A stretch of 64,000 bases of DNA from Schmidtea polychroa (GCA_044892525.1 CM097885.1:119040001-119104000), one strand, 5' to 3'; counted from the first letter of the stretch, positions 9,791-60,220 are shown. Program-made: numbers and translations. Notes: generated by a model from the sequence alone, not told the origin.

Positions 9791-9808
9791 ATCACGTCGG
9801 GCTCATCA
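9791..9808 (-). promoter_or_regulatory. Primer binding site, tRNA-Trp type (TGG mutated to TGA)
   Basis: TGATGAGCCCGACGTGAT a few bases inside the LTR; intact homolog at 30856. Confidence 0.75.
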
Positions 9809-9815
9809 GAATATA

Positions 9816-30848: not shown

Positions 30849-30855
30849 TATATTC

Positions 30856-30873
30856 TGGTGAGCCCGACGTGAT
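30856..30873 (+). promoter_or_regulatory. Primer binding site, tRNA-Trp
   Basis: TGGTGAGCCCGACGTGAT is complementary to the ...ATCACGTCGGG(G/C)TCACCA 3' end typical of animal tRNA-Trp(CCA). Confidence 0.85.
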
Positions 30874-31160
30874 CGAAAGTCGGCGGAAGGTTACTAAAGT
30901 TAGTGAAAAAGTTAATTATTGGAAAAGTACTAAAGACGTGATTGGAAGTCGGAGGAAAATTATCTAAAGTAGTGGAAAATATTTTTTTGGAAAATAATAC
31001 CGTCGTGATAGAAAGTCGGCAGAAAATTATTGCAAAAATATTTGGGAAAAGAGTACAGACGTGATCTCAGTCGGTGGAGAATAATTGGAAGTAGTTAAAA
31101 AAATGTATTGGAGAATAGTATTGACGAGATAAATATTGAAGGTCATTTTGGAAGATTGAA

Positions 31161-36149: not shown

Positions 36150-36153
36150 GTAT

Positions 36154-38745: not shown

Positions 38746-40329
38746 ATGATGGTGATAAGTTTTAATGGTGATAAATTTAATTGATAAATTTAATTAATTT
38801 CTTGATAATTAGTTGTATTTTATTGAATTGTTTTTAAATTTTAAATTAATTTTATTGACAATTAGGTTAATAATTAAGTGATAGAATAAATTTTTGATGA
38901 TAACTTTGTAATATATTTGACTAAATAATGTTTTCAATAATTTTCTAAGAATATTTACACATTGATGAACTTTAAAAAACATAAGCTAAGAAACCAGTTA
39001 ACTTTATCAAGGACTTTAAATTTACTTGATAATTATTGTAGGATACTGAAATTTAGTTTGCTGTTACCGCTTGAAAATGATTGGTTGAATAGCTGAAGAA
39101 TTATGATCAAACAATATATATCATCTCTAGTTAGGTATTTGATGGGTGAAATATTTGTAGGAAATAATGAGTTTATTATGTCTGTTACATAAGTCGACTT
39201 TAGCGTCAAAATGTGTTTTTAAAATATATTTAAATTTTAAAATACCACAACGTAATATATTTTTTCCCTGCCCTTCCATGATTTTGATTGGTTAGTGGGC
39301 TCTTATTATTTAGCTTCTAAATTATTTCAATGGAAGAATATTTGGTGTCTTTAACAGTTAATGAAAAGTTATATTTTTGAAGTTCTTTAAGGATTTTAAG
39401 AGCTGGGATATTGTCGGTGAGATTTAATGAGAGGTCGGTTAAGATGAGAATATATGATTTTTTAAGGGTGATGTTGGTAAAATATCAATGTTTTAAGGGA
39501 AATTGCAATACATTAGTCAGTTATGAATCAATAATAATGTGAAATTATATCGTTTTATTAGGCTGTGATTAATGCACAGTAAATTAATTTAGAACAATGT
39601 TTTATTAAGTAGAGATGATGATCGATTTACTTGGTTTTGACAATGAAATCTTTACAGATAATTGGGATTGATGTCAACTTTAAATTATTTCTCTTTGACA
39701 ATTATTAACTTATTAAAATTTCTATTTAAAATTAGCTTAAAAAATTATTCCATAAAAGTTTCTATTAAAATTTGACTTAAAAAATTATTTCTTAAAAATT
39801 TCATTTTAAATTTTTATTTCTCAGAAGCGGTTGGTTATTCCAACTTTTTGTTAATAAATTTTAATTTAAAGTTTTGAACCTATAATTTAAAAATAAAACA
39901 TTAAGTTACCTATTTATCCTTGTATTACTTTATTTAAAATTTTTTACCATAATTTACAACCAAATATAACCCTTATTTTCATATTTAACCAATAATTTCA
40001 TGTAGTGAATGATTAATTGACAATGATTTGCATCTTTAATTACTATTGAAAAATAATACATAAAAATTTCCATCTAAAATTAACATTGAAAAATAATTCA
40101 TAAAAATTAACTTTAAAAAATAAATTATTTCATTAAAATTTTCATCTAAAATTAACACTGAAAAATATTTCATAAAAATGTATATTAAAAATTATCTTAA
40201 AAAATATTCGTTAAAAATTTTCATTTAAAATTTTCAATTCTCAATCACCAACTATTATTCCAACTTTTTGTAAATAAATTTAAAAATCTAACTTTAATTT
40301 ACTTATTACATTACTTAAATTTACTTATT

Positions 40330-40930
40330 TAACTTTAATTTAAAGTTTTTGACCATTGATTACTTAATTTTAAATTTTGATTCTTAATTAACTTTAATTT
40401 TTTTTTTAGAACCTTAATTAACTTATTTGAGCCCATTGATTACTTTAATTTAAATATTTGGACCTTAATTTACTTATTTGAACCCATTGATTGCTTTAAT
40501 TTTAAATTTTAGACCATAATTAACTTATTTGAACCCATTGATTAATTTAATTTAATTTTTTAGAACCTTAATTAACTCATTTGAACCAATTGATTACTTT
40601 AATTTAATTGTTTTTTAGGATCTTAATTTACTTATTTCAGCCCATTGATTACTTTAATTCAATTATTAGACCCATAATTTACTTTAGTTTCTTAATTTGA
40701 ACCCATAATTTACTCTAATTCAATTTTTAGACCCATAATTTACTTTAATTCAAAAATCTGAGCCCATAATTTACTGTAATCCAATTTTAAGACCCATAAT
40801 TTACTTTAATTCAAAAATCTGAGCCCATAATTTACTGTAATCCAATTTTAAGACCCATATTTTACTTTACTTCAAAAATCCTAGCCCATAATTTGCTGTA
40901 ATTTAATATTTTGGATCCATAATTTACTTT
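40330..40930 (+). repeat. Degenerate tandem array, ~37-41-bp unit
   Basis: Recurring AATTTACTTTAATTCAAAAATCTGAGCCCAT / TTTGAACCCATTGATT units. Confidence 0.8.
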
Positions 40931-40949
40931 AATTCAAAAATTTACAATG

Positions 40950-41340
40950 CTTTTTTTAGTGAAGACCACCTTTTTCTATTGAAAATATCCTGAGACCTTA
41001 AATTACCATGGCTTTTTTAGTGATAATCAGATTTTGTATTGAAAATCCTAGGACCAAGGAGACCCACCCAAATAATACTGACTTATCCTTTGCTTTTTGT
41101 ATTGAAAATATCCTGAGACTTTAAATTACCACTGTTTTTTTAGTGTAGACCACCTATTTGTATTGAAAATATCCTGAGACCTTGAATTACCATGCTTTTT
41201 TAGTGTAAACCGTCTTTTTGTATTGAAAATCCCTGGACTATGGAGATCCCTTCACTATAGTCTGAATAATCCATGCTTTTTTAGTGTAGACTACCTTTTT
41301 CTATTGAAATTCTTAGGACCAAGGAGACCCACCCAAATAA
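40950..41340 (+). repeat. Degenerate tandem array built on TTTTTTAGTG.AGAC.ACC and ATTGAAAATATCCTGAGAC motifs
   Basis: Motifs recur at about 40950, 41015, 41135, 41195 and 41278. Confidence 0.7.
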
Positions 41341-41816
41341 TACTTATCCTTGGCTTGTTTATTGAAAAAAAATTTTTTGTATTTAAAATCCCAGAAAAAA
41401 ATCATTGGAGCGTACGGCAAAAATTATGTAATCAAAATGATGTCTACGGCAAAAATTATGCAATCAAAATTTGCAACATTTTTTAACCCCCCCCTATTGC
41501 TGCCGGGAGCTCCTAACTACCTACTCAGCTTCTATAATAATTTTTATTATAATCAGTAGAAAAACCTTTTCAAAATGTCTAAATTTAACAAAAATGTTGA
41601 TTTTCATCAAAAATGAATAATTGTCAACTCATCACTACGTGGAATTGATGATAATTTAAATTACAATGAAAGACTAATGAATTCTTATTTACAAAACATT
41701 CTTCTTTTAATTGATTACTACTGACTTATTATTGCAATGTAAAAATCACATTCAATAAATACTTATTGTTGATCAGTTTTATTATATATACTCCGACAGG
41801 ATGTTTTGACCCCCTA

Positions 41817-41887
41817 AGGGTACTGGTCATAAAGGTACTGGTCGTAAGGGTATTAGTCGTAAGGGTATTAGTCGTAAGGGTATTGGT
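41817..41887 (+). repeat. 15-bp minisatellite (GTCGTAAGGGTATTA)
   Basis: Four to five tandem degenerate copies. Confidence 0.8.
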
Positions 41888-44205
41888 AACTCTCAACCAC
41901 CACCTACCCATTAACTAGTTACCATGTACTAACAACTAGGTCTCAAACAACTAAATACTAAACATTTACAACCACATACTAACAACCACCATCAAAACCC
42001 ATCGAGGAATTAACAAATGTCAACCTACAACTAAATACTTACAACCAGATACCTGCTACCAAGTACTTACAATTAGAAACCAAGTACCAACAATCAACTA
42101 ACAACACATAAAAATAATAGCAATTAAATACAAAATATTCTTCATCACATACACTATCTTCTTATCAAAATCTAAAAAGTCAACCAACTACTTACAACCA
42201 ACAACTATGTACTAACAAATTGATCTTTAAAATAAAATACTCGTCACTTGAAAAATTAGATGGAAAATTATTTGAACTCAAGGCATAACTTGGTAAAAAT
42301 TGATTAAATTATTGTAAAAATTTAAATTATTCAAAACATACTAAATAAAAAAATATAATTAATGGACAAGAAAGAACATTAAATTTGAATCATTAAGTCA
42401 CTTGCAAGATTTGTAAGATACTGGATAGTAAATAAAAAATACTAATCATTCAAGTTAATATGAATCAACTAAGATAATAAATTAATAAAATTTTAAAATA
42501 AGATCTAGTAGATAATTGATTTAGATTGAATAAATTAATTGAAATAAAATTAATTTTAATTATTTTTTTAAAAGTAATACATGTACTCAAATTGATTGAC
42601 TGATTGCTCAAAATATTCAAAAAAAACAGTATAAATTCATTACAATTATCAAAGTCAGCAATCTACAATAAAAATAATTATCATTAAATTCCAAAAGAGA
42701 CTAGATAACTAATGATAACATCTAATAAACCAGTAAATTCATTTAAATGACAATAATTGGTATATTCAAGCGAATTCTCTAATAAAATCATCTAAAAAGC
42801 ATCAAATTTCATATATATTCATATATTCCCCTCAAACTAACAAGATTCCTTAAAATCCCTTAAATGACTATATTTCAACCCTTAATTCATATTATTACAA
42901 ATATCATTTAAAAAGCATCAAATTTCCTTGAAATAACTCTATCCTTAAAGATTGATATTTTAATGATAAGTACCCGTAAAAGATCATATATTCCCCTCAG
43001 ACTAATAAGATTGCTTAAAATCCCTTTAAATGACTATAATTCTAACTTTAATTCCTATTATCATACATATTTCACTATTGATAAAACCAGTTACAATTAA
43101 ATTTTTGTTAATCACTGTAAATTTTTTTAAATCATTGTACTCGAAATTTAAAATAAATATAACTGACTAGGTCCCATTGAAAGATTAAATTTATCCATTC
43201 AATAAAATATATTTCTTCAAATGGTCAACTTTTGTCGTTGTCCGTCTAAATAAAGATAAAAATAATTTAAAGTTGACATCAATCCCAATTATCTGTAAAG
43301 ATTTCATTGTCAAAACCAAGTAAATCGATCATCATCTCTACTTAATAAAACATTGTTCTAAATTAATTTACTGTGCATTAATCACAGCCTAATAAAACGA
43401 TATAATTTCACATTATTATTGATTCATAACTGACTAATGTATTGCAATTTCCCTTAAAACATTGATATTTTACCAACATCACCCTTAAAAAATCATATAT
43501 TCTCATCTTAACCGACCTCTCATTAAATCTCACCGACAATATCCCAGCTCTTAAAATCCTTAAAGAACTTCAAAAATATAACTTTTCATTAACTGTTAAA
43601 GACACCAAATATTCTTCCATTGAAATAATTTAGAAGCTAAATAATAAGAGCCCACTAACCAATCAAAATCATGGAAGGGCAGGGAAAAAATATATTACGT
43701 TGTGGTATTTTAAAATTTAAATATATTTTAAAAACACATTTTGACGCTAAAGTCGACTTATGTAACAGACATAATAAACTCATTATTTCCTACAAATATT
43801 TCACCCATCAAATACCTAACTAGAGATGATATATATTGTTTGATCATAATTCTTCAGCTATTCAACCAATCATTTTCAAGCGGTAACAGCAAACTAAATT
43901 TCAGTATCCTACAATAATTATCAAGTAAATTTAAAGTCCTTGATAAAGTTAACTGGTTTCTTAGCTTATGTTTTTTAAAGTTCATCAATGTGTAAATATT
44001 CTTAGAAAATTATTGAAAACATTATTTAGTCAAATATATTACAAAGTTATCATCAAAAATTTATTCTATCACTTAATTATTAACCTAATTGTCAATGAAA
44101 TTAATTTAAAATTTAAAAACAATTCAATAAAATACAACTAATTATCAAGAAATTAATTAAATTTATCAATTAAATTTATCACCATTAATACTTATCACCA
44201 TCACA

Positions 44206-47200
44206 ATGTGCTTAAAAGATAAAACCGGCAGGATATGTAAAATGAACGCGATAATCAGATGTCCAGAGAAAATAATAGTACCAGCAAATTCGCAAATGAT
44301 ATGCCAGATTAAAGTAGATACGGGCATGGAAGGGGAAGTTATTTTCGAACCAAGTAAATCCTTTGAAAAGAGACGAGAGTTACCACTAGCAAGAGAGATA
44401 ATAACAATAAACCAAGAAGGAGTAATACCGATCAACATCACAAATTTCGAAGAGGAAGGCAAAATTATCGATGAAAATGAAAGACTGGGTAAATTGACTC
44501 CAATGATGGATATAGAGTTACCAAAAGTGACCAACGAAACAGCAAAAGATTACGAATTATGGACAATCGACAGTACATTGTTGACTGTCACCGAAAAAGG
44601 AAAATTACACAAGCTATTAGTAGAATATAAAGATATATTTGCCATCTCATATTTAGATTTGGGTACATTTGATGTTACCCTACATGCAATACCACTGATA
44701 GATGAAACTCCAATTGCGTCGAGACCATACAAACTAGCAGAAATGCAAAAAGAAATAGCTGAAGCAGAAGTACAAAAAATGCTAGATGCAAAAGTAATCG
44801 AACCAAGTTGCTCAACCTGGCAGTTTCTAGTGGTCATGGTGAAAAAGAAAGATGGCACGTAAAGATTCTGTATCGACTATCGAAAATTAAACGCAGTAAC
44901 AAAGAGGGATACCTACCCATTACCAGACATCAATGAGATGTTACTTATGTTGCAAGGGGCAGCATATTTTACGTCTTTAGATTTAAAAAGTGGATACTGG
45001 CAGATTAAAGTCAAGGATGAGGACAAAGAAAAGACCGCTTTCACGTTGGGACGAGATCTATATCAGTTCAGAAAAATGCCATTCGGACTGACCAACGCAC
45101 CAGCATCGTTCCAAAGGTGTGTGAACTTCGTCACTCATGGAATCAAACAATGTATGGTATATATTGATGATTTACTAATATATTCAGCGACATTTGAACA
45201 ACATCTGGAGGATATCAGAAATGTATTTATACGCTTACGACAACGGAAACTCGAACTCAAACCTTCAAAATGCGATTGGGCAAAAGAGAAAGTTACGTTC
45301 TTAGGACATATAGTGTCAGCCAAAGGAAAAGAGCCAGATCCACGAAACATCGAAAAAATAAAAACATGCCCAGCACCAAAAACCGTCACGCAAGTGCAAG
45401 AATTCCTAGGATTATGTGGATATTACCGAAAATTCATCAAAAATTATGCAGGAATTGCGAAACCAATCCAAGAATTAGTAAAGAAAGATATCTCGTTCAT
45501 TTGGGAAAAGGAACAGCAAGAGGCATTCGAGACGTTGAGAGATAAATTGATTGAAGCACCAATCCTAGTACACCCATATTTCAAGAAGCCATTTCTATTG
45601 GCAACCGACGCAAGCGGATATGCAGCATGAGCAATTTTAGGACAACTAGATGACGAAGGAAAAGAGAGAGTAATCGGATATTACAGTCGAACGTTCAAAA
45701 AACACGAGAAGAACTATTCAGTAACCGAAAGAGAAGCATTGGCTATAATACAAGCAATCAAACATTTCCGATATTTGCTATGGGGACACGAGATATGCAT
45801 AACCACAGATCATCAACCATTAGTGTGGTTAGGGCAACATAAAGAAGCGTCAAGTAGACTGATGAGATGAGCCATGCATATAAAATTCAAAGCAGGAAGA
45901 GCAAATGCCAATGCCGACTGCATGTCGAGGTTTATTTTCCCAGATTTGGTGGATCAAGAAATGCAACGGATATGTCTAATAGTAGCAGAAGATTTAGATT
46001 TTTGTCAATTACGAAAAGATCAGCAAGAAGATGCAGAATTAAAGCAAATTATTGATTATGTGAAAACGGGAAAACCAGATGTGTATGAGAAAGACCAAAA
46101 ATTAAAAGAACATATGGACAAACACTGACATCGATACGTCATAGAAAAAGATTGGCTGTTGATAATGGATGGAGAAAAGCGATTAATGTGTATACCGGGA
46201 AATAGACGGAAAGATCTATTGACACAATATCACGATGGTAGATTGGGAGGACATATGTCATCAAAAAAGACGTTAGCGAGAATGAAACAGAAATATTTTT
46301 GGCCTACATTAACCGAGGACGTAACAGAATGGGTGAAAAATTGTCTAACTTGTGCAACCAGGAAAAACACTGGATCAAAATGGAAAGCACCGTTAACGCC
46401 AATGCCGGTACCGATAGAACCTATGACGATGATATCGATGGACGTAGTTGGTCCATTACCCGAATCAGATAGAGGAAATGTCTTTATTTTAGTAATTACG
46501 GATTACCTCACGAAATTCCCAGAAGCATTCGCTATGCCAGATCAAAAAGCTAAAACAATCGCAAAAATACTGGTAGAGGAGATATGTTGCCGGTACGGAA
46601 CGCCAAAACAAATACTAACAGATCAAGGAACTAATTTCATGAGTGAAATAATGAGTGAAGTGACTAACTACTTCAAAATCGCAAAGTTGAGAACATCACC
46701 GTATCACCCCCAAACAAACGGGATGACGGAAAGATTCAATGGAACACTCATTCAAATGCTGTCGAATTATGTCGACCGGCACCAACGAGATTGGGACGAA
46801 TATATAAATCTGTGCCTTATGGCGTACAGAATGTCAATACATGCATCTACGAAAATGAGCCCATTCAAATTAATGTACGGAAGAGAATGTAACATGCCAA
46901 TGGACCTGGAATACCAACCACCAATATCGCAATATATGGAGATAGGCGATTACGTCACAAAATTCAAAGAAAGAATGCAGGAGATTTGGGAAACGGCAGG
47001 GTTGAATATCAAGTTTTACCAGGAAAGTTGTAAAGACTTACACGATCGAAAGAAAAATGTGAAACAACATACATTCCAGACAGGCGATTGGGTAATGATA
47101 GAAACACCCGAATTAATTCCAGGAACCACCAAAAAATTACAATGGAATGGAAAAGGGCCATACGAGATTCTATTTGTAGGTGAAACCAACGTGAGAGTAA

Positions 47201-47643
47201 AGTTGGTAAATAACCCGTTCACCAGGCCAATATACGTCAATGTGGCACGTTGTAAACCAATCCCAAAAACAGCCACCAGTCAACCAGAAGGCCGTACGTT
47301 AACCACACGTTCGCAAACCTACAGAATGAACATGATGCAGCAGCTCGCAGAACCAATAACCGGACAATTGGGTATACAACCATCGGAAGCCGAAAAGATT
47401 GTAAAAGATGTAAAAATTAAAATACCCGGATGGGCAAAAGATAGACTAGATTTCGAAATATTAGGCGGTCTATTGACAATGATCGAAAATTACGCAAACA
47501 GAGAAAGAACACATCCATTATTACGAGTAGTTAAAAGTCAATGGCCAACATTACTTACAATAACAGATCATTATGGAGACACACCATTACATAAACTCAT
47601 GAAAGTAGGCAACATTGAGCAAATACTAGAAACAATAGAATAA
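44206..47643 (+). pseudogene. pol: Pol: post-protease domain, RT, RNase H, integrase
   Basis: RFCIDYRKLN, MPFGLTNAPASFQR, YIDDLLI, TDASGYAA, TDHQPL, HDGRLGGH..CLTC, SMDVVGPLP, LTDQGTNF, NGMTERFNGTL, GKGPYEI; in-frame stops at 44860, 45628, about 45868 and 46126. Confidence 0.97.
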
Positions 47644-49092
47644 TTTCACTACTGCAAGAGATCAACAGAACAAGAAAACAACCAAGGCTACACACCATTA
47701 ATGATAGCAGCAAACAAAGGCAAAACAAAAGACATTATAACAGCATTACTTGAAACAGGATCGAAAATAACTACACAAGATCATGACCAGAAAAATGCGC
47801 TACATCACGCAATCGAAGGGGAAAATGCAGAAACATTCATAACGCTGATGGAACTACTATCATATGAGGATAACCGAGAGGTCGGAAACATGTATGACGG
47901 ACTACTGACGGCGATCAAAGAGAAACTAACAACAATCACCGGAATATTAATTGCATGGAGGAACCCAATTAGAAATGATTATATGATAGACGTAAACGAA
48001 ACATTCACAAGAGGGGAAAATACGTTAATGAAGGAAGCAATGAAAGGACATCATTTATTCGAAATCCCAAACCAATTATTAGAACGAGGGATAAAGTTCA
48101 CAAACCATAAAGATGAGCAGCTATTAAAAAAGCGAATCGACATATTCGAAAAATCAATATTTCAATTCATTAACAAAGTGCGAGATAAATATTGGGAAAC
48201 GGTAAGCGTGTTATATATGATGGACACGATGAACAACATTCGCGAGAATTACTTAGACATTATTCAAGTACTTATAGCAGAAGAACGAATCAATAACTCA
48301 ACCGGAAAGAAAATAAAAATAAAGAAATGGGCATCAAAGGAACCAAAGTCGCAAACGAATCAAACTACAACAAATAAAGTCATTGAAACAAGACCGACAA
48401 ATTCAGATCATGAAACAATAATACGCAAAGCTAAAGAGGTGTTCTTCGAAGAAATGCAAGAGTTATCAGACGAAATGATATTATCAAAAATCATAAAAAC
48501 CGTGCATACATATGCAAGAGATCAAACAACGAATTTAGATATCGGGAAAATCAAAACCTTCATGCCACGAGCATTTACGATGTCGACAAAGGATCAAAGA
48601 ACACCATTGCAACAGGCAATATTGGCAGCAAAAGAAAACCGAGCAATAACGATCATAAGAATCCTCAGAGATTTGGGTGAGGAAACTAACACGAAAAACG
48701 AACAAGGCGAAACAGCCATGATGTATGCAGCTATAACAAAAATACACCCAAAAACATTACATATATTACATCAATCGGGATCGAGACTAGATGAAAAGTC
48801 AAACGAAGGAAACTCCACAATGGATTGGGCAACCATACAGCCAAACCTAGAAATGATCAGATTCCTCTGCAAAAATGCGACAAAAGAGGAAGTTGAAAAC
48901 ATCTGCAAAAATACATCTCAATTCCAGTGGAATACTGTAAGGAAAAATCTAGAAGCAATGAAGCTATTATTAACATGGAAAGTACCGCAAAGTAATAAAT
49001 ATGCGATAAATATAAACGAATTCTATGAAAACGGGGAAAATGCGATGGTAAAAAACACATTAACCAAAGGGGGGACACAAAAATCATACTAA
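47500..49092 (+). CDS. Ankyrin-repeat extension of Pol (two clusters), one in-frame stop at 47641
   Basis: YGDTPLH, QGYTPLMIAA, QKNALHHA, QRTPLQQA, QGETAMMYAA, EGNSTMDWA. ORF 47701 is in frame with integrase ORF 46159 across a single TAA. Confidence 0.85.
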
Positions 49093-49537
49093 TTGTATTA
49101 AATAGAGAAAACCTGAGATTCACAAAAAAACAGAACGAACAACAACGAATTGGAAAACACCGCCGTGTAAAGAGAATTAGTAAAAGAATGGAACAGGAAA
49201 AGACATGCAGCAACCGGGAGAAAGTAGTTCGAATTTGAAGCTAAACTAGCAAGAAATAGAGTACTGACAGCATACCGAAGACTGTTTGAACGATATAAAT
49301 GTCGAGGACGACATTTTAAACGACAGCGGGGGAGACAAATACGACGATAATGACGGAAAAGGTCGAAAGGAAGACAGAGAGAAAAGAAAACCGGAGGAGG
49401 ATAACCAAGGAAACAAAGACTCAAATATGGAAAAGGAGGGAAACAACCTGGAAAACAAGATGAAAGAGGAGGAAAAAACAAATGATGGAAAACAGAGGGT
49501 ATGCCTACCTATCACCAACAAAGAAATAGAAACGAAC

Positions 49538-50377
49538 ATGATATTGATGATACTTGTGCTAACCATGATAGAGATAGTAACAGCTCATGGAGGGATGAGA
49601 ACGATAAAAGAGACCAAAGAAGCGGAAAATCACGACAATAAAGAGGAAGAACTAAAACAGGAAAAGAAAAAGCAAGTACAAGAACAACAATGGGATCTAA
49701 AAGAAAGGTGTATACTAGGAAGATGCATGTCTAGAACATATCAGAGACTAGTGCTGATAAATGAAGATACGGAACCAATAACGGGAGTGGGAATACAGGA
49801 AGCGTACCAACATCGAAACGGGAAGAGAATAACGAAAGTTAAATGGAAAGAGATACACCTAGGAAAAGGAGGTGAGATAGCAATAACACAACTTCAACCA
49901 AGGAAAGAACACAAAGTTTGTATTTCAAGGTTAGGACCAGGAGAGTACTGTCTACAATATGTAACACAGCAACAACCACCAAAGGAATATACGGTCTGTA
50001 TTTTGAGAAAAAGACCAGAAAAGGAATGCCGACGATATCCGGGGAAAAGGGGAAAGAAAAGAAAGATCAATGACAAAGGAGAAGAAGAAGGGAAACGCAA
50101 GAAAACCAATGAGAAAAACCAAGACAATTACGTGTCAGAAGAGGAAATGGAAAAAATACAAAAAATGGCAAAAGAAGGAATTAACGAGGAAATAGCAAGA
50201 ATACGAGGGTTGGAGAAAGGAAAAGCCAATGCAGAAAAAGAAAACGAGAAAAGTACTGAAGTAGGGAGTACCATTACAAACAATGGAAAATCAGAAATTA
50301 TCAGCGTAAACCAGATGATATGGATCAGTGGAATAATAATAACCGGTGCGTTCATAACCATAACGGGGGGACGATAA
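49538..50377 (+). CDS. Predicted type I membrane protein with FN3-like ectodomain
   Basis: Signal-like MILMILVLTMIEIVTAHG; KVKWKE..IAITQLQPRKEHKVCIS (FN3-like); C-terminal MIWISGIIITGAFITITGG. Confidence 0.55.
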   Translation: MILMILVLTMIEIVTAHGGMRTIKETKEAENHDNKEEELKQEKKKQVQEQQWDLKERCILGRCMSRTYQRLVLINEDTEPITGVGIQEAYQHRNGKRITKVKWKEIHLGKGGEIAITQLQPRKEHKVCISRLGPGEYCLQYVTQQQPPKEYTVCILRKRPEKECRRYPGKRGKKRKINDKGEEEGKRKKTNEKNQDNYVSEEEMEKIQKMAKEGINEEIARIRGLEKGKANAEKENEKSTEVGSTITNNGKSEIISVNQMIWISGIIITGAFITITGGR

Positions 50378-50849
50378 AAATAATCCGAGATAAACAACAG
50401 CGTAGCAAACTCGAAATGATCAGAGTCAGAAATTTCCAACATCGGGTAAAAAGACCCAGTAAAATAAGCCAAGAGCAGTGGATGGAGGCCTGGAATGCGC
50501 AGCGCCCTCCGAATCTACAAATATAGAAAGGGTTATGACTGTATATAATTGTAAAAAGTAAGTATATCTTATGTATATAACAGTATCATATTCTTATATA
50601 AGCGCGGTATTAATATTATATAACGATCGGGAGAAATAAACAATATAAAATTAAATAAGACAAAGATTGAGAGTGTGTATAAAATTAAGAATGGAGCAAG
50701 GAAACAACGAAATAAACCACAACACAGCAACCGAAGACATGTGGAAGCAACAATTCGCCCTATTAGCACAATTAGTATCTAATCTGCAGGAGCAAGGACT
50801 TACGATGTAAAGAAACTTAGTCGACAGTCTAAACAAAGGATTTAGTTAT

Positions 50850-51050
50850 TTGAAAATAATTGAGGATCAGAGGACAAAAATCGAACAAATGCAAAGAGAG
50901 TTAGAGCGGATAACACGATACAGCCAGAGACAAGAAGATGAGTTAGTAAGAATGGCGGAGGAAGCAGAACAAGAGGAGATGGAAGACTGGTCAGAATGGT
51001 TAATGAGGAGAGAAGAGGGCGGACAGGAGGCCGACTCTTCTGAACCATAA
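50850..51050 (+). CDS. Small acidic coiled-coil ORF
   Basis: Heptad-like EQMQRELERITRY...EDELVRMAEE; non-ATG start in the track. Confidence 0.35.
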   Translation: MKIIEDQRTKIEQMQRELERITRYSQRQEDELVRMAEEAEQEEMEDWSEWLMRREEGGQEADSSEP

Positions 51051-51134
51051 ACAAAACCCAAACTAGGTGTAAATAATTGTAAATAAAATATTGAACCTAT
51101 ATCGATAAGAAACTATATGTATATAATTGTAGAC

Positions 51135-52523
51135 ATGGATAAGCAAAGAAGAGAGGAGTTTAACGAAATCATCGAACTAGTCAGAAATTCCACAGCAATC
51201 AAAATACACAAGCATGTTATGTGTGGGATATGTGAAAAGTTGTTAAAGGAACCCCATCAAACCAAATGCGGATGCAGATTATGCAAAGAATGCATAAAAG
51301 AGGCAATAAAGAGTAGACCACAGTGGTGTCCGGTATGTAAAGAAACCCTGATATCAAGTCTGGAAGATACCAATGAGGATAAAGCCGCAGTAAAAGATAT
51401 GTTGAACGCTAATCTGGGATGTAAAAATACCCCATGCGAATGGAAAGGACTAATATGGAAAGTAAAACAACATATAAAGGAATGTATATACCGAGTCAGC
51501 CAATGTGACCGATGCCAAAAAAAAATCCAAGCCAACGAAGAAAGAGAACATCAAAGCCAATGTGAGGAAAGGCTAGAAAGATGTGAATATTGCGGCGAAA
51601 CAGACACAAGGAAAAATCTAACCCCCAAACATCACAATGTACAAGAGGAAAAGATATGTGCAGAATTCTGTGGTGAGTGTCCAAATGGATGTAAAACAGG
51701 CGGAATGGTAAAAATAGCCCAACATCTAAAGGAATGTGAAAAGAAAAGAATAATATGTGTATTAGGCAAATGGGGCTGTCAGAAACTACTGCACCAAGGA
51801 GAATTGCTACACCATTTAACAGAAAACGTATCAACTCACGCAGAGATGTGGTCAACCGCGTTGCAAGAAAATGAAGAAAAAGTTCAACAAATGGAGATAG
51901 AAATAACATCGTTGAAAGCATTGGTAAAAGAACTGTTAGAAGAAAGAGAAGCCTTCGAAGAAGCCCGAGCAAACATAAAGATGCAAATAAATCGGATAGA
52001 AATCAGTAATAATCAGGCCAAGGTGCTGCATCAAAAGATAAACGAAATAAATCTCAATGAGGTAATACCAACAACACCCTACATATGGAAAATAACGGGA
52101 GTGAAAGAAAAAATACGAAAAGCAAAAATTGGGGAAGATACAAGAATAACAAGCCCCGCATTTCATTCGTGGAAGAACGGATATAAAATGAAAATAAAGA
52201 TATACCCCAACGGGGACGGAACCGGATTGGGGACACACTTCTCTATATTCTTTCTATTATGTAAAGGAGAACATGATGAGATAATAGAGTGGCCGTTTCA
52301 GGCAAAAAACGATATCACAATAATGAATGACCAAAGCATACACGAACAAAGCTTCAAAACAACGGGAAACCAGCTATGTTATCAGAGACCTCTTGAAGAA
52401 GAAGGAGCAGCAACGGGAGCACCTACGTTCATTCTACAACGGAAGTTAGAGGATATGGCAAGAAATGACACGATATATATAAAAATGTCAGTGAGAAAAG
52501 ACGGGAAGGGTAGAACAGAATAG
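51135..52523 (+). CDS. TRAF: TRAF-family protein (RING, TRAF zinc fingers, coiled coil, MATH), intact and intronless
   Basis: CGICEKLLKEPHQTKCGCRLCKEC...CPVC (RING); CKNTPCEWKG..HIKEC, CDRC..HQSQC, CEYC, CPNGC..HLKEC, CVLGKWGC..H (zf-TRAF); coiled coil; YIWKI..SPAF..GYKMKIKIYPNGDGTGLGTHFSIFFLLCKGEHDEIIEWPF..YQRP..NDTIYIK (MATH). Confidence 0.95.
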   Translation: MDKQRREEFNEIIELVRNSTAIKIHKHVMCGICEKLLKEPHQTKCGCRLCKECIKEAIKSRPQWCPVCKETLISSLEDTNEDKAAVKDMLNANLGCKNTPCEWKGLIWKVKQHIKECIYRVSQCDRCQKKIQANEEREHQSQCEERLERCEYCGETDTRKNLTPKHHNVQEEKICAEFCGECPNGCKTGGMVKIAQHLKECEKKRIICVLGKWGCQKLLHQGELLHHLTENVSTHAEMWSTALQENEEKVQQMEIEITSLKALVKELLEEREAFEEARANIKMQINRIEISNNQAKVLHQKINEINLNEVIPTTPYIWKITGVKEKIRKAKIGEDTRITSPAFHSWKNGYKMKIKIYPNGDGTGLGTHFSIFFLLCKGEHDEIIEWPFQAKNDITIMNDQSIHEQSFKTTGNQLCYQRPLEEEGAATGAPTFILQRKLEDMARNDTIYIKMSVRKDGKGRTE

Positions 52524-52873
52524 CTAGCGTGAATAATGTTGTATATAATTAATTTGTATATATCGGTGTATATAACCAATAAAATAGTATATAATAATGG
52601 TATGGGAACCTCAAATACGACAACCAAAAATGAAGCGAAAAATCCATGAAAAACATTAATTGAATAATAAAATTATTACTACGATAAAAATTTAACCAAG
52701 GTATATAATTTAGAAATGACACAAGAGAAAATAGCCACAAACAACGAGGGCCCAGCAGCAATCAGAATTAGTGGGGAAATCAAGAGGAAATGGAACAAAG
52801 TAATGTTCCAATTAACCAACCTAACCCGGAACCACATTGAAGAAGCTAGGGAATACGAGAGTAATAAATATCG

Positions 52874-53755
52874 ATGAACAATTTGAGAGCCGAAGCAGAA
52901 GCATGTAAAAGAGCCTCGAAGTGGGCGGCGCTAGAAAATACTCGCCAGGAAGCACACATCCATTACTTGAAACAGCTGGTGCAGGAAGCAAGGAAAAGAC
53001 TAACCGACGAAAACACAAAACGAGAAGCAGAAAAGCAAAAGGAAGAGAGGAAAATGAATCAACTATTGGCAGAAGACAGGAAATGGAAGCGACAGAGCAG
53101 AGAGATAAAAAAGGAAATGAGAGAATTGCCACAAAAACTAGGTTTTGAAAACGAGCAAGGCAAATGGGAAGAAATTCTGGACCAAAAGGAGGAATTAAAG
53201 CGACTGAGAAAGGTCGCCGCCCGCAGTCAAACATGGCAGACCAAGGCCATGGAGTTTGAAAGGCACTTGGCGATGAAAATCTCCATAAAGGAACACGAAA
53301 ACGCTGCAATGGAAGAGATGATCCTACAGCAATCATGACGGATCGTGGAACTAGTAAATAAAGTCGCCGAACTAGAAAGAGATAACAATGGATATAAAGG
53401 AGCTCTGGAACAGAGAAATATGATAGTGGCGGGGAAAAATAAAAAGCTGGAGAACGAAAGAAAAATGTATAATGAAAACATCAAAAATTTGGAGATAAAG
53501 ATCGAAAAATGGAAAAGCGATGAAAAGATAAAGGAACTAGATAAGCAAATAGAGGTGAAAGATGATGAGACGAGATACCTCACCTATTTGCACGACGAAG
53601 AGCTGAATATAACCAGAGAATTAAGAGACGATGTTCACGAGCTGAGGGCTCAAATTCCTCAATACCAGATACCATACGACCCCATTGCTATCCAGCTACA
53701 GTCATCGGTCGAGAGCGATGAGAGATACGTGGGTCAAGAAGAAACCTTCGTATAG
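52874..53755 (+). CDS. Coiled-coil accessory ORF, one in-frame stop at 53336
   Basis: Two in-frame E/K/R-rich ORFs (154 aa and 136 aa) separated by a single TGA. Confidence 0.6.
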
Positions 53756-53925
53756 AAACTAATAAAAAGACAAAAATATAAAATCGGGACCTATATCCCA
53801 AACAAAAAAATTAAAAGTATAGTAAAAGTATCTAAGGGACTGTAACCCTGATTATCTAAAAATGCATATAAATGTATAAGTATAAGCCGCATTGTAGCGC
53901 ACTATTAATTGTAAATATTGTAGAC

Positions 53926-54351
53926 ATGAAGATTGAAGAAATAATAGAACCCATGATTGAAGTAGAAGAAGGAGAAATTGAAGTAGAAACCACGGAAACA
54001 CAAATACTAAAGGAAGAATTATTGGAAGAGAAACGAGAAAACGAGAGACTGGTAAACAAATACATAGAAGATCGGAAAATAATAAAGGTGCTAAAGAAAG
54101 AATACAAAGTACTAGAGGAGGTAAAGAGAGAAACGGAGGAGAGAAACGAATGGCTGCAAGAACAACGAAAGCGAGGGAGAAATTGGGAAAAGATCGCGGA
54201 AGAATTATGGAAAGAAAGGGCAAGCTTCAAAGCGGAGGAAGTAATCGAAGGTTACTGGAAAACAGAGGCGAAAGAGCGCCAGGCAACCATAAACAAATTG
54301 AGTCAACAGTTGAAGGAAAAACAACAAGAAAGTGAAGAGATGAAGAAATGA
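53926..54351 (+). CDS. Coiled-coil accessory ORF
   Basis: ATG in the same GTAGACATG context as TRAF; E/K-rich heptads; degenerate continuation to about 54640. Confidence 0.55.
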   Translation: MKIEEIIEPMIEVEEGEIEVETTETQILKEELLEEKRENERLVNKYIEDRKIIKVLKKEYKVLEEVKRETEERNEWLQEQRKRGRNWEKIAEELWKERASFKAEEVIEGYWKTEAKERQATINKLSQQLKEKQQESEEMKK

Positions 54352-54680
54352 AGCCGCAAGTATAAGGAAATCGAAACGAAGCACCAGCAATAGCAGCATC
54401 GAAGAGGTAATCATCAGGAGCCCGAACAAGATTTCCTATAAATCGAACTAAAAAGAAACCTCGACAAGAAAGGGGAAGAAATAAGAAAACTAGAAAAGGA
54501 GATAAGACACTTGAAAAGGGAAGCACGTGAAAAAGATAGACAGTTAGAAATGCTACCCGAGTTAAGACACAGGGTCATTAAAGCAGAGTCTACCCTGATG
54601 AGAATCGCCGAAAATAACCCCAAAGGAGAACCGTCTAACTGAAAACCGTTAAAGCCAATTGTAAATATAATAAATAATAG

Positions 54681-55247
54681 ATGTATAACAGTATGATGCG
54701 GTGCGGAGTGATAGTCACACTGATAATATTGGCTAACAATCTGATGAGTAAGTCGCAGATCAATCCCCAGATAGATAACATCCGAGACCACAAAAGAAAG
54801 AACCCGAAAGCCGAATCCGAATCCTCCAAACGGGCATACCCCATCTCAGTAAAGATCAATATCGTGGACAACATCCGCTCAACCCGAGCCTATATCAACA
54901 ATGTCCGAATAATGTGCCGAGACAATCCCATATGTAAAACGATAAATAAAGTGATGATAGAACAGATCCATCACTTGGACCAGCTGGAATCACAAATACA
55001 GCAGGAAAATTTCGAACTAGAGAAAACCGAGAAATCCACAGAACCAGGCGACACACATCTCCTCTTATATGTGGTGATCGCGGAAACCATCCTCCTATGC
55101 CTTCTAAGTCAGAAAGAGATGTCAAGTCTCGACAACAACGAGAGAAGCCTCGCACCAAAACCCCCAAGAAGTGATCCTGACAAACCTTATCCCAACAACG
55201 TTCCGACCCAGAACGACCAATACCAAGATCAGTCAATCAAAAGCTAA
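54681..55247 (+). CDS. Small predicted membrane protein (signal peptide, CX5C, coiled coil, TM, Pro-rich tail)
   Basis: MMRCGVIVTLIILANNL; CRDNPIC; LLLYVVIAETILLCLL; AATAAA at about 55420. Confidence 0.55.
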   Translation: MYNSMMRCGVIVTLIILANNLMSKSQINPQIDNIRDHKRKNPKAESESSKRAYPISVKINIVDNIRSTRAYINNVRIMCRDNPICKTINKVMIEQIHHLDQLESQIQQENFELEKTEKSTEPGDTHLLLYVVIAETILLCLLSQKEMSSLDNNERSLAPKPPRSDPDKPYPNNVPTQNDQYQDQSIKS

Positions 55248-55523
55248 CAGTCAACTCTACCTTAACATTAATATCCCAACTCACCAACAGCCACCAGCAG
55301 AAACATCCGATTGTTGAACAGTATCTGAACTATAACGGAAACATTATCTGTGAAACTTTTATTGTATATTGTGATTCTTTATTGTGATTCTTACTTATCT
55401 TAACTTTGCCATTTGTCTGAATAAAAATTTGTTGTTGATTATTGTTTTACCTTTTTATGAATGAGTGAAGGTAGTTCGAATATGTAATTGCGGGACGCAA
55501 TTTTGATGGGTCCCCCAGTGATT

Positions 55524-56500
55524 TGTTGGGCTGAGTCGAAAGCATGGGTAGGAAAGTAGGACAAGCAAGATGTTAAAGAAAATAAAAATAAAATAAACAA
55601 ATTTAAAAATAAACTAGAATCAAAATACAAAAGAAACAATAATTAAAATATAAGAATTAAAACAAAAAATAAAAATAAGAAAATCAAAATAAGAAAATAA
55701 AATAACGAATAAAATGACGCAAAATTTAATAAATAATGAGGAAACTAAAGAAACAAAAAAAATATAATAAAAATAAGGAAAATAAGGAAAAATAACCAAA
55801 AAACAGAAAAGGTAAATTAAATTAGAAAAACTAAGCGGTACTCAATTCTGATTGGTCCGCACACATGAAAAATTAATATATAAGTAAGCACCAAAATCAT
55901 TAAAATCACGGCTAATTCAAAAAATTCTATAGGTAAGCAAACTTCGAAAATATCATGACGGTTAATTCAAAAAATTCTATAGGTAAATCCAGAAAACAGC
56001 AGCGACATACAGAAACTATTCAAGAAACCACCAGTACTAGAAATCGACATTCAAGGAGCAATCATTAGTAGGAATCAATCAGATTACTTTCGACAACGTA
56101 ACGATTAATTTCGACTCAGCCCTCATACCGATAACGATAGTAAGGAGATCTTTTATTTTTGAAAAGTTAAAAGTAATCATGGATATTTGTTAAATAATTA
56201 AAATTTTTGTTTAATGCGAATTTCTCTTCATTTGATCCTTTTTCTTTTCGTTTAATAATCTTAACAAGGTTAATAATTTAAATGTTTACATGTGATTGAT
56301 AATAATAAAGGACTTATTTAGAAATTTTTATGATTTGTTTCATGATCTAATTTTTTATGATTTACATTTTATGAGGAACGTGGAGTTGAGACGTTTCATG
56401 TCATGGTGTGAGGGGCCTTCGGGTGCTCAGCCGGTGGACATGAAACCTTTCAATCACGCAGTTGATTCGGGCCGTAATTTGGGGGCTTCCTCACGGGTCC
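55524..56500 (+). repeat. 3' LTR of element 4 (end not located)
   Basis: TGTTGGGCTG start shared with 61911 and 19897; ATTGG box near 55850; GGCCTTCGGGTG block shared with the LTR at about 20865. Confidence 0.55.
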
Positions 56501-57840
56501 GTCGCTGAAGGTCATCTAAATCTATTTAGGATAGTAGAACACAAGCTGCATAAGAAATTTTAAAAATCGTAAGAAAAGTAATGTTCACGGGTCACAGTGA
56601 TTGAGGGAGCTACCATCTTTATGCCTACAATGACTCTACAAACCAGCGGCATTATTCTTCGAAAAGTTCACGTCATCACCGTCTGTAAATCTGAATCTCT
56701 AATTCTTCCCTTGATGACTCGATTAACACTCATCTCCAGCGAAATTCTCCAACACCTTAAAGTTGAGCTCTCATTTTATTTTTCGGAGGTTAAGCCGATT
56801 CGAAATTTTCACCATGATATCTTGACATTCAGACGATAGAGCATAATAATAACATTGTTGAAAATTTTAATAACAAAACTGTATGTGTAACAATACTTTA
56901 TTTAAATACATTGGCAAATTCTGAACTACCTGCGTAAACATCTCCTATGCGATTCTTTCAGAATATTGGTCACTGAAGTGAAAGTAATAGATATCTTCTA
57001 GATGGTTTAGAGAGATTCCCCATCGCTTAATATATCCAACTCGAGAGAAATTGCAAATTATAGCAACGAATTCCAATTTTGCCGGTTAGATGCGAACTGA
57101 CAGAAGACGACATGATATCAAAAAAATTTTCCAATTCAACTCGTTATGGCAAGTAGAATTTCATCAAGTAAAACATGTGCATGTACATATTGTATCTGCT
57201 AGTGACGATAGTCATATGTGAGAATGCGTGAGAAATAACATAACTAACGAGTAACCATTAACAGTAGAAAGTTGCACCATAGGACGCACTCGGCAGAATT
57301 TTTATCGTTGTGTATAGTAGTGGGTGAGAATATTAGATAACAACTGCCATAAGGCACGTCACCCAGGCCGGTAATTCCCAGATTTTTGTTTTTGATAAAA
57401 ATTTTGTGTCATTAATCTAGATAATTGAGTAATCGACAGACGACTACTGTAGGCGATTCAAGTCCTTAAAGTCCAAATTTTAGAGATTTTCAATTAAGTA
57501 TTATAAATAATAATTGAAAAGTATTACAAATAATAATTAAAAAGTATTATAAATAATAATTAAACTTAAACAGATCTATCCGGGTAATTCCTTAGATCCT
57601 CATGTATAAAAATCGTCAAGCGGGAAAGGGAAAGCCTTGGGGAAAATAAACAGCTCTATATATATTATTTTTTTTTATTTTTATCTAAATTGTGATTTGG
57701 TATTTTTAAGAGAAATTCAGAAGTTACTAAATTCACTCAATTGCAGAATTTTCATACTTGACTTATTTGCATTCGTCAAGACAATAGTATATGTTATTAA
57801 TTAATTATGGTAAATAATATACAAAGTAGTAATGATTAGT

Positions 57841-59205
57841 TGTTTGGGGGGGGGGGGGATTCCCTTACCCGTCTAACCTGATCTCCTTTCCTTGACGAAT
57901 ATCCGAGGCAGGGAATGGATAGTTGCGCCCAATTTATGACTTTTCCAATACCATATATTCTGTTTATCATAATCTCTTCTTTATAGCTATCCGACATGCT
58001 ACCGAATACCAAACCTGTACTACGCCCTTGTTTCTCCTGTTCCGACAAAGATTCTATCATCAAAGATTTGCAGGCCCAGATCGGTCGACACAAAAGAAAA
58101 ATCGACGAACTGGAAGGCACATGGTTCAGCCCAGTGCAGATGAAGGAAGTACAGAAGAAGCTCTTCACAAAGTATACTTGCAGGCGGCGACTACTCGAAA
58201 GATCGTCAGCATCCCCATCCACGAAGCGGACAACATCTTCCCAGTACATCATGATACTTCGTCTAAGTCATCACCTCCGACTAAGAAGTCCTGTCGGGAA
58301 TGTGTAGAGGCCGACCTCTCGTCTAAGCAATCGGATATAATCTTCACCGGGACCAGTAAGGCGCCACCAACTATCGCATCTACATCTGCAGCGCCCCCAA
58401 ATGTTCCGACGACAACAAAACCTAGGCGACGGCAACTCTCGAGGGCCGAACGCAAGAAAAAACAGCGGGAACGAGCGACCGCCAAACAGGACAAACAATC
58501 GACGGGCAACCCGGTTAACGTCAACACTCCCTCTGCAGTGATCGATTTAACAACAGGGATCCCAGGGCGAATCATCTCCGCTGCTGGTGTAACCTGGGAG
58601 GAAAATTCCTCCGAATATTTCAATTTGGACGAGTTTTTAGCCGACACAGAGTGGGGAAAATGAGAACCCCGCTGTGGAGTACTCTTATCATCCGCAAACG
58701 TTCGGACTAAATTATTAACGTTTTCTCTCTCTTTCCTCTTCTCATCAAGGTATATCTGTGGTGTGTAAATTGTCTGTGTTTTGTGTCATGATATTGAAAT
58801 AAATCAATTTTTCGTTCTTATATATTTTCCTTTGTGAGGAGTTCGGTACAGATTTTTGTGAATATAGGCGAAGGCCTTCAAGGTTCGATGGGGCATTAAC
58901 CAATTTGCATTTAACATGAATATAGTGAGAGGTTTGATAATGTGAATAGACGTAAGTCCTTCTATCGGCAGTCGGGAGAAGGAAGTCGAGGCCTCAGTTA
59001 GCAGTAGGCTCACCTGCTTACTGGCGTCTCGCCGGCATAGTATATTTCCAACGTGAAGCAATTCACGGGTACTATGTTGGATTATAGGTTGTGCAAGGCT
59101 CTACTCGGGGTTGACGAAGTAATGGCTAACATATGCGGAATGGACAATCATCTCTTAGACGAAAAGTTAAAATAGTTGAAGTCAACCGAGTAGTGCCCAG
59201 CAACA
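57841..59205 (+). repeat. Solo LTR containing an ORF
   Basis: TGTTTGGGG...CCCAGCAACA; 4-bp flanks TAGT/TGGT; AATAAA at about 58799; carries the conserved U5 module. Confidence 0.55.
57996..58663 (+). CDS. LTR-internal ORF, probably one frameshifted gene (CxxC + coiled coil, then Ser/Thr/Pro-rich and basic region)
   Basis: Overlapping ORFs 57996-58307 and 57923-58663; pyrimidine-rich acceptor TCTCTTCTTTATAG 9 nt before GACATG; GC-richer than the flanks. Confidence 0.45.
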
Positions 59206-59305
59206 TGGTGAAATCCTTTGAGCTTTTACCCCACTTTTTTCTTTCATCATCTGCTGCTGCATAATCCATAGGAGTAAGACATGTATTTTTAGTATCGGAA
59301 TTATA

Positions 59306-59521
59306 CCGTATTTTAGCGCATATAACGCGCGCGTTATACGCATTTTTACAAACCGTGCACCCCTCATGCGCGGTATCTGTGGGTGCGCGCTTTATGATTT
59401 ATATTTTACACGTGGCGGCATTGCCAGTGGAAATATTTTTATGATGTGACAGTAACCCTACCATCGGTTTTATTGTTTATTGTAATCAGATTCCGCGCGC
59501 GTTATATGCGCTAAAATACGG
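59306..59521. mobile_element. Tc1/mariner (pogo/Tigger-like) MITE, 216 bp
   Basis: TIR CCGTATTTTAGCGCATATAACGCGCGC / GCGCGCGTTATATGCGCTAAAATACGG, flanked by TA on both sides. Confidence 0.85.
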
Positions 59522-59540
59522 TAATTTAAAATAGTTTCTA

Positions 59541-59861
59541 TTAATGCCTTGTGAATGAATGTATTATTTTCACCCTCAATCTTGATATTATTAAATCCCA
59601 ACACTGCAAATTGTTCGGTATTACATCTGCATTGGCATCCAAAACTTTTCTATCTTTATCTATAACCTTGATCTGAACAGTCAATAAAGTATCGTTCAAA
59701 TCTAAATATTCAGTTTGCGAACCATTAATATAAAACTCTATATTATTTCTACTATCGGTAATTGAATTCATAGAAAAAACTTCCTCAAATGCCCAAAATT
59801 CTATTACAGCCTGGGGCGATGGTCTATCAAATATACATAATTCAGATTTACCACAAATCAT
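59541..59861 (-). pseudogene. Maverick/Polinton (adintovirus-like) major capsid protein, N-terminal fragment
   Basis: KSELCIF..PQAVI...IEFYINGSQTEYLDLNDTLLTVQIKV..DVIPNN matches the animal Maverick MCP start (KSELDLF..IEF..YLDL..V.PVNN); truncated afterwards. Confidence 0.75.
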
Positions 59862-60220
59862 TTTGCAAATATAGTTCCATGTCCTTTCATTCGTTTGTTT
59901 ATACGTAATATTCCATGTCTTTTACTTTTTGGAGCCGGAGCTGGAGAATTTTCTTTTTGAAACATACCTGCAACCCCTGGTAAAACTTTCCCTAATTCAG
60001 CTAAAGCATTTGTTTTTAGAGATGGTAATATTTTCTGTACATTCATAATAACATCTTTTGCAGTTTTAATACCAAAACTACCAATACGTTTAAGAATAGG
60101 CAATGCAAATCTACCAATTGTTCTCAACCATCCCGATCCGTAATGTTTACCAATAAAATATGGTAATTCACCGCCAGATTGGCTACCACTATACGTACTA
60201 ATAATATCACAATTTGCCAT
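59858..60220 (-). CDS. Maverick small basic core-type protein (QxGG/GxG motif) between the capsid genes
   Basis: QSGGELPYFIGKHYGSGWLRTIGRFALPILKRIG, basic C-terminus; overlaps both neighbours. Confidence 0.65.
   Translation of the reverse strand: MANCDIISTYSGSQSGGELPYFIGKHYGSGWLRTIGRFALPILKRIGSFGIKTAKDVIMNVQKILPSLKTNALAELGKVLPGVAGMFQKENSPAPAPKSKRHGILRINKRMKGHGTIFAK

Follow-up and report, generated by a model that had tools for sequence, protein, structure and literature searches.

A decayed copy of a giant Burro-type gypsy element in Schmidtea polychroa and its conserved cargo cassette, a likely actor on host survival or immune signalling

How do genes for ankyrin repeats, a TRAF and membrane proteins come to stand in one row behind a gypsy integrase, and does the element that carries them keep them? 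This question is raised by a stretch of 64,000 nucleotides of the Schmidtea polychroa genome (GCA_044892525.1 CM097885.1:119040001-119104000), analysed here and called the window, in which a preliminary description had placed a giant gypsy element at 44204..56500 with a multi-gene signalling cargo in a swappable slot after the integrase. Our analysis identified 44204-59202 as the decayed 3' half of one copy of a 28-30 kb gypsy long terminal repeat (LTR) element, named family A, with sister families B, C and D in the same genome. The explanation that we hold probable is that this Burro-type element, which carries a fixed and conserved cassette, likely benefits from it through an action on host survival or immune signalling, with the small genes made from predicted sub-genomic mRNAs.

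The start given for the element stood, as did a distance of more than 8 kb from the integrase core to the LTR. The end lies beyond 56500, because the LTR ends read from the paired LTRs of whole copies place the window LTR from 55524 to about 59202. The coding part lies on one A-rich strand as described (42% A on the + strand over 44204-55523), and Pfam and hydropathy bore out the reverse transcriptase (RT), RNase H, integrase, ankyrin repeats, RING- and MATH-bearing TRAF and two membrane-type products. The features of the copy are as follows, with ORF for open reading frame.

44204..50526, +: 3' part of ORF1, about residues 2500-4617 of whole copies (tblastn with the ORF1 of a whole copy, Pfam)
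44863..46128, +: reverse transcriptase and RNase H (RVT_1 E 2.5e-33, RT_RNaseH_2 E 2.3e-11, Pfam; three-frame translation)
46129..47250, +: integrase, H2C2 zinc finger and core (Integrase_H2C2 E 6.9e-21, rve E 3.7e-12, Pfam)
47644..49092, +: ankyrin repeats in two blocks (Ank_2 E 1.3e-19, Pfam), in the integrase frame in whole copies
49427..50526, +: membrane tail of ORF1 (hydropathy)
50540..54667, +: ten TGTA(A/T)ATA octamers in five inter-ORF spacers (count against resampling)
50691..51050, +: 119-aa accessory ORF with one stop in the window copy (homologue of the family B 151-aa ORF; dN/dS 0.09)
51135..52523, +: full-length intronless TRAF, open in the window copy (Pfam, genome matches, tree; dN/dS 0.08)
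52716..53755, +: 351-aa charged, coiled-coil-like ORF with a frameshift and stops in the window copy (dN/dS 0.05)
53926..54642, +: ~235-aa charged, coiled-coil-like ORF with three stops in the window copy (dN/dS 0.13)
54681..55314, +: last ORF, ~205-225 aa, single-pass membrane-type, with a frameshift in the window copy (hydropathy; dN/dS 0.24)
55524..59202, +: 3' LTR, ~3.7 kb, TG...CA (ends from the paired LTRs of five whole copies; right end +/- ~3 nt)
57996..58663, +: 247-aa ORF inside the LTR with a frameshift in the window copy (no family match; dN/dS 0.09 on 8 pairs)

The ORF1 part, running from a pre-RT region through RT, RNase H, integrase and the ankyrin blocks to the membrane tail, aligned with the ORF1 of a natural whole copy at 90% and then 77% identity (tblastn), and it is interrupted by five in-frame stops and by two or more frameshifts. 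By translation, all small ORFs of the copy are broken, TRAF excepted. The missing 5' half was found neither in the window nor within 10 kb on either side.

Whole copies were recovered elsewhere in the genome. The RT piece gave at least 149 scored matches (96-100% identity) and the TRAF at least 91 (82-100% identity, among 2,030 candidates), both counts being lower bounds; frames of at least 4,700 codons were open around some 70 of the 149 RT matches, counted by eye. Out of ten stretches extended upstream, five held whole LTR pairs with 4-bp target duplications, three held interrupted or partial pairs and two held none. The paired LTRs (3.76-3.86 kb, TG...CA) are 99.6-99.95% identical, and copying of family A is recent because the pairs are near-identical. 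The total length is 28.0-29.8 kb, with an internal region of ~21.8 kb. The preliminary description was right to see a giant Burro-like gypsy element whose accessory genes are virus-like. Its refuting condition did not hold: the ORFs are multi-copy genes of the element, and single-copy host genes were not what we found. From 5' to 3', whole copies hold a 161-aa leader ORF with a C-terminal IAP-type RING, ORF1 of 4,617 aa, and ORFs of 119, 462 (TRAF), 351, ~235-254 and 219 aa.

ORF1 encodes, in order, gag, a CCHC motif, a weak ubiquitin-like region, a BCL2 fold, a fusion glycoprotein, protease, RT, RNase H, integrase, ankyrin repeats and a membrane tail. The protease-RT-RNase H-integrase order, read from Pfam positions in a whole copy, is that of Ty3/gypsy, and an env-like Monjiviricetes fusion protein lies in frame between gag and pol (PF24664, E 1.1e-55, whole copy). 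The region before env matched BCL2 weakly by Pfam alone (E 0.037); its structure model (pLDDT 78) retrieved Bcl-2-family proteins in 39 of the 39 Foldseek rows listed, the best with E 3e-3 and TM 0.57. The ubiquitin/SUMO-like match (PF00240) has E 0.1 in family A and 2e-4 in family C. No dUTPase-like Pfam match was found in the protease-RT interval of the window or the whole copy, no profile-profile search having been made. The ankyrin repeats and the first membrane protein had been listed side by side with the other cargo. Rather than separate genes, they are the C-terminal third of the gag-pol ORF, because whole copies hold them in the single 4,617-aa ORF, which in the window is split by stops and frameshifts.

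A start of ORF1 at a spliced-in AUG was considered and rejected: 103-115 open codons precede the gag ATG, the 5' ends vary and no constant acceptor is present. A short word of the R/I-x-N-M type recurs at ORF1 domain borders (in stretches L059 and L060), including window ~47320 after the integrase. In families A and B a non-purine motif stands directly before the 3' LTR, with no plain polypurine tract (window 55470-55523), and a primer-site-like word, which we take to resemble a proline-tRNA site, lies 7-8 nt past the 5' LTR (L060, L099). In families C and D the tract at the 3' LTR is a normal purine one.

The cassette proved constant in both sets of copies that were followed to the LTR. Twenty RT-picked copies were chosen from the 149 matches, for the most part among the less identical ones and away from the TRAF list. 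The order ankyrin, membrane tail, ORF119, TRAF and the two coiled-coil-like ORFs is kept in every one of the 20; the last ORF was detected in 19, and the twentieth has it frameshifted. Among TRAF-picked copies, 12 of 12 are linked to pol and 11 of 12 run on to the LTR in the same order. Identity of the RT-picked copies to the window declines from 94-98% in the integrase to 22-66% in the last ORF, the fastest-diverging gene, and even 22%-identical last ORFs align end to end. Median pairwise dN/dS was taken over pairs with dS > 0.15, without the saturated ones and on 5-28 of 30 copies per gene. RT and integrase gave 0.01, most of the cargo 0.05-0.13, the leader RING 0.17 and the last ORF 0.24. 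With values far below 1, the cargo is kept by selection on the element. For the last ORF, positive selection was considered but is not shown, the highest pairwise dN/dS being 0.41 (15 of 30 copies used, the most distant subfamily falling outside the 80% coverage rule). The 247-aa ORF lies within the LTR and is under purifying selection, and therefore solo LTRs carry it too; one solo-LTR-type copy was seen beside a host TRAF gene (L118).

The TRAF of the window has a RING, zinc fingers, a coiled coil and a MATH domain (MATH_2 E 1.5e-25, Pfam). In a tree of 43 rows made by a quick method, the A and B TRAFs grouped with three public proteins in one clade (SH-aLRT 100) apart from seven host TRAFs, and because of this single clade the TRAF of the two families points to one old capture. 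Host TRAFs are ~25-34% identical to the element TRAF and lie outside its clade. The usual form of the RING at one position is CxH, where the element TRAF and the host TRAFs examined have CxC. Host TRAFs are of two kinds (L107-L118), intronless ones of ~455-475 codons and intron-bearing ones clustered on C2 at 115-121 Mb.

For the other products the assignments are looser. The several coiled-coil proteins of the preliminary description are charged, low-complexity ORFs that look coiled-coil-like; their Pfam matches are all sub-threshold, and they are candidates for Smc-like coiled coils. The FN3-like membrane protein is membrane-type by hydropathy (a hydrophobic segment, a cysteine-bearing beta-rich domain, a second hydrophobic segment and a short tail), but an FN3 fold is not shown. 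The AlphaFold model of its ectodomain is all-beta at low confidence (pLDDT 54), structure comparison (Foldseek, VIA-align) placed FN3 chains at Z 4.5-4.8 among unrelated beta-sandwiches reaching 5.8, and neither an fn3 Pfam match nor a usable Atlas match was found in the tail. A by-eye look for TRAF-binding motifs in the membrane tails gave nothing convincing.

To place family A, its relatives were compared. Family B, found by a MATH search of the genome, carries MATH within an ORF1 of 4,688 aa, followed by ORFs of 151, 474 (TRAF), 392 (BIR+RING), 532, 261 and 328 aa. Four of these are detectably homologous to those of A, including the 532-aa ORF (31% identical to the 351-aa ORF of A) and the 261-aa ORF (25% identical to the ~235-aa ORF), and the last ORF of B stands in the same place as that of A and has a hydrophobic segment. 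The IAP has no counterpart in A, where no BIR was found in the ORFs of a whole copy and no MATH inside ORF1; the RING of the A leader ORF and that of the B IAP are 36% identical over 39 aa. IAP and MATH excepted, A and B are syntenic gene for gene. They are 57% identical over the ORF1 core and 89% over 390 aa in RT, and the B ectodomain is three-repeat. Most of 150 scored BIR matches in the genome lie in family B frames of 392-393 codons (L099-L106).

An RT/RNase H tree of 14 rows (4 of 18 inputs dropped as absent or short) joined A with B and C with D, each with support 99. Family C is the 'element 1' of the preliminary description, to whose integrase that of the window had been called close. 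The motifs PPISQYMEI.DY and QYHDG.LGGH are present, but pol is 45% identical and RT/RNase H 49-50%, and C is another family. It is 14-18 kb long, with 1.06-kb LTRs and one 3,319-aa ORF (gag, ubiquitin-like, BCL2-like, env and pol, then a post-integrase hydrophobic segment, ectodomain and transmembrane segment), without ankyrin or small ORFs; its integrase gave 150 scored matches at 94-100% identity. Family D (L125-L130), the sister of C, has 0.8-kb LTRs and the same ORF plan, both copies being broken. Compared with A, families C and D have 14-18 kb in total, LTRs of 0.8-1.1 kb, no ankyrin, no downstream ORFs and one octamer each.

Two explanations of the cassette can be weighed against these data. 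The post-integrase region could be a slot in which one pol exchanges cassettes frequently, as the preliminary description had it. The families do differ, with the extra IAP ORF and three-repeat ectodomain of B and the lack of ankyrin and downstream ORFs in C, and last ORFs are 22% identical between subfamilies whose integrases are 95% identical. Yet the order is the same up to the LTR in all 20 of the RT-picked copies and in 11 of the 12 picked by TRAF, the 22%-identical ORFs are alignable over their whole length, A and B share every ORF but one despite 57% identity over the ORF1 core, and element 1, at 49-50% in RT/RNase H, is a distant family. A swappable slot within family A is largely refuted, and we rate it very improbable; the region is not swapped within the family, and slow gain, loss and divergence separate the families. 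That the cargo ORFs are passengers, either function-less captured host sequence or host genes beside a pol fragment, would suit the mostly broken ORFs of the window and the many host TRAF genes. This idea is refuted by the selection and LTR data, dN/dS lying far below 1 across subfamilies and the ORFs lying inside paired LTRs, and the distance of host TRAFs (~25-34% identity, outside the element clade) also speaks against it; we give it almost no credence.

How one provirus could express its small ORFs is suggested by the spacers, each 35-220 nt long. In the window, TGTA(A/T)ATA occurs at 50540, 50572, 51068, 51078, 51118, 52540, 52555, 52567, 53910 and 54660, that is 10 times in 869 nt against 0.7 expected (reached in 0 of 2000 resamples) and never antisense. 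A whole A copy has 10 in 880 nt and B has 8 in 694 nt, with no excess in ORF1. Across 33 stretches, 154 of the 158 spacers that could be measured contain the octamer; the first TGTA(A/T)A lies 14-23 nt past the stop in four of the five spacers. Four representatives gave 36 sense and 2 antisense octamers in 2,691 nt, with position 5 free (A18 T15 C2 G1) and the rest fixed. The sense-strand octamer with its free position 5 fits the Pumilio-element consensus UGUANAUA (as given in PMC5758885), and the spacer octamers are predicted to be putative Pumilio response elements. Spacers of A and B align at little beyond the octamer and A-runs; in family A the spacer from TRAF to the next ORF is 188-221 nt in the copies displayed (31 measured). 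Within 200 nt of host TRAF stops the octamer was found in 0 of 13 cases, and 18 of 2,333 background 60-nt windows contain it. At the other end of the spacers, 98 of 102 fixed starts have an AG no more than 3 nt from the ATG (a count that dropped matches in GC-richer context and the last ORF), as do 146 of 158 by a looser rule that allowed a choice among in-frame ATGs, against a narrower background pattern, WWAG, at 85 of 936 (9%) AT-rich ATGs.

We propose that the protease encoded in ORF1 would process the ORF1 product into capsid, BCL2-fold, envelope, enzyme, ankyrin and membrane proteins, and that splicing to the AG before its ATG would place each small ORF first on an mRNA. About half of our confidence in the route goes to cis-splicing from the 5' leader, a clearly smaller part to spliced-leader trans-splicing and the smallest to some other route. 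The TGTANATA octamers would then stand at the start of each 3' untranslated region, and through them a PUF/Pumilio protein would govern how stable the mRNA is or how it is translated. Among the expanded host TRAFs, that of the element could serve as an adaptor, an E3 ligase or a decoy, and the BCL2 fold and leader RING protein would give any anti-death activity in place of an IAP. By analogy with the IAP of Burro1 (cited in PMC13465017) and with host TRAFs (PMC7586133), modulation of death or immune signalling by the family A cargo is plausible.

Several points weigh against this proposal. Expression, splicing and PUF binding of the cassette are predictions from sequence. The fourth spacer has the octamer in 0 of 32 copies within its first 45 nt; the octamer appears further on or, in 3 of 32, is wholly absent. 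The last ORF has the acceptor-like AG in 21 of 31 copies only. The octamer has an AT-rich composition and coincides in part with TATA-like and AATAAA-like words, and both AG counts lean on the counting rules given above. Because the copies are kin, the spacer counts overstate independence, the independent weight being that of five or six spacers in two families. Deleted variants are under-sampled because the RT-picked copies were drawn from the 149 best-scoring matches. The ubiquitin-like match in family A is weak (E 0.1), and the position of the element TRAF among host TRAFs is weakly resolved in the quick tree.

The same spacers could instead be internal promoters and/or poly(A) signals that make every small ORF a short transcription unit by itself, with the octamer as a TATA-like word, a forkhead-like word or a UGUA+AAUAAA end signal. 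TGTATATAA does hold a TATA-like word, and TGTAAATAAA holds AATAAA, right after the stop in several B spacers. When the octamer is set against the forkhead consensus, the free position 5 breaks both AATAAA and the forkhead word, but not the Pumilio consensus, and strong internal poly(A) sites would be expected to truncate the genomic RNA. Planarian poly(A) sites are moreover reported without UGUA in the text of PMC5068929, and although the short gaps of 35-220 nt are similar to those between operon genes (PMC8629364), we hold this explanation to be unlikely. A bolder form of our proposal would make the Burro cassette operon-like, a long RNA being spliced, possibly to a spliced leader, before each ATG, with Pumilio elements after each stop, so that the cargo, including the RING+BIR gene of Burro1 named B-IAP (Lee et al., Dev Cell 2026, cited in PMC13465017), would be tied to an RNA regulator of stem cells. 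Operons that are resolved through trans-splicing do occur in flatworms, with a mode of ~100 bp for Macrostomum operon spacers by the account in PMC8629364, and we regard this form as possible but doubtful. A stronger contender, to which we give a little under an even chance, is that family A is the published Burro-2, -3 or -4 and that its cassette and transcripts are already described. The text of PMC6431247 names four Burro families with ankyrin, MATH/TRAF, Smc-like coiled-coil, BIR and BCL2 motifs, and related TRAFs occur in public protein sets (P0001, P0017, P0007). The same source notes BIR in Burro-2 to -4, whereas family A has none.

Around the copy, the window holds other elements, given here by position.

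5000-10840, -: family C
29820-32624 and 35120-36164, +: family C
38747..44203, no strand: unrelated element with 944-bp inverted arms, bordering the copy at its missing 5' side

Neither the gag at 31140 nor the LTR pairs at 29820/35120 are from the 5' half of the window copy; they are family C sequence, and further C copies lie elsewhere (L119-L124). At 44203, where its 5' half is missing, the copy abuts the 944-bp inverted-repeat element, which is 5.5 kb long and gene-less, with arms 99.8% alike and internal tandem repeats. Comparison of its outer two ends revealed no matching target duplication, and related sequence interrupts another copy of family A (L037-L039). Immediately to the left of the window, within the adjoining 10 kb (L078), lies another gypsy with env, whose gag, env and pol are 34-39% similar to those of family A. 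On the - strand, 59304-60220 contains a short hairpin pair and two ORF fragments with no Pfam match, which presumably resemble Maverick/Polinton genes.

The cassette as such is not new, because its cargo types have already been reported for Burro, a point that the preliminary description could not confirm and that the text of PMC6431247 settles for the types, and family A may be one of Burro-2 to -4. What may matter more is its punctuation, octamers after stops and AG before starts, kept in two families with little other spacer likeness; it offers a direct and cheap test of how one provirus expresses six or seven ORFs, and this spacer code is the main lead. In the literature searched, we found no account of Burro spacer signals or of an IAP-less family, though Grohme 2018 and Lee 2026 may cover both. 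A recently copied IAP-less sister lineage is also a built-in comparison for the claim that Burro1 supports stem-cell survival via B-IAP. If the operon-like form were true, the mutualism reported for Burro1 would find its natural control in family A, and part of the planarian TRAF expansion would be due to TRAFs borne by retroelements. Planarian TRAF counts and knock-downs may mix host and element genes, as there are scores of TRAF copies that are intronless, open and kept by purifying selection.

Set beside known systems, family A appears by sequence to be of Burro type and within the Burro clade. Its length is near 30 kb; a single ORF in the range of ~4,600-5,100 aa holds gag with CCHC, in-frame env, a BCL2-like region and ankyrin after the integrase; MATH/TRAF is present as a separate ORF, and RT groups with family B. 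It resembles Burro1/GYPSM1 as described, with ~30 kb, a giant ORF from gag to ankyrin including in-frame env, and TRAF/MATH and coiled-coil-like cargo. Two features of Burro1/GYPSM1 are absent from A and present in B, namely MATH inside ORF1 and the BIR-RING IAP, and family B has the layout described for Burro1/GYPSM1 (PMC6431247). The ORF1 of A is also shorter than the one described for Burro1 (4,617 against 4,873 aa), its ankyrin region is longer and two-block, and its 247-aa LTR ORF has no match to the LTR ORFs of B. The Burro-like element of Dugesia (Girardia) tigrina likewise has an ORF1 without MATH and a TRAF in a separate accessory ORF (PMC6431247), but by its description that ORF lies upstream and ORF1 has 5,140 aa, whereas the TRAF of A is the second ORF downstream. 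The B-IAP of Burro1 offers a likeness as an element-borne death-pathway gene in a downstream ORF, and the leader ORF of A ends in a RING similar to that of the family B IAP; the mechanism reported for B-IAP cannot apply as such to A because A has no BIR domain. Host TRAF knock-down raises cell death (reported in PMC7586133), and the expanded planarian TRAF/MATH family (PMC6109357, PMC7586133) shares the domain order; the CxC in the RING is common to the element TRAF and the host TRAFs examined here. The main texts of these two papers draw no link between TRAFs and transposons ('transpos' and 'Burro' are absent from that of PMC7586133). The element TRAFs differ from this host family in forming a clade of their own, multiplied by retrotransposition.

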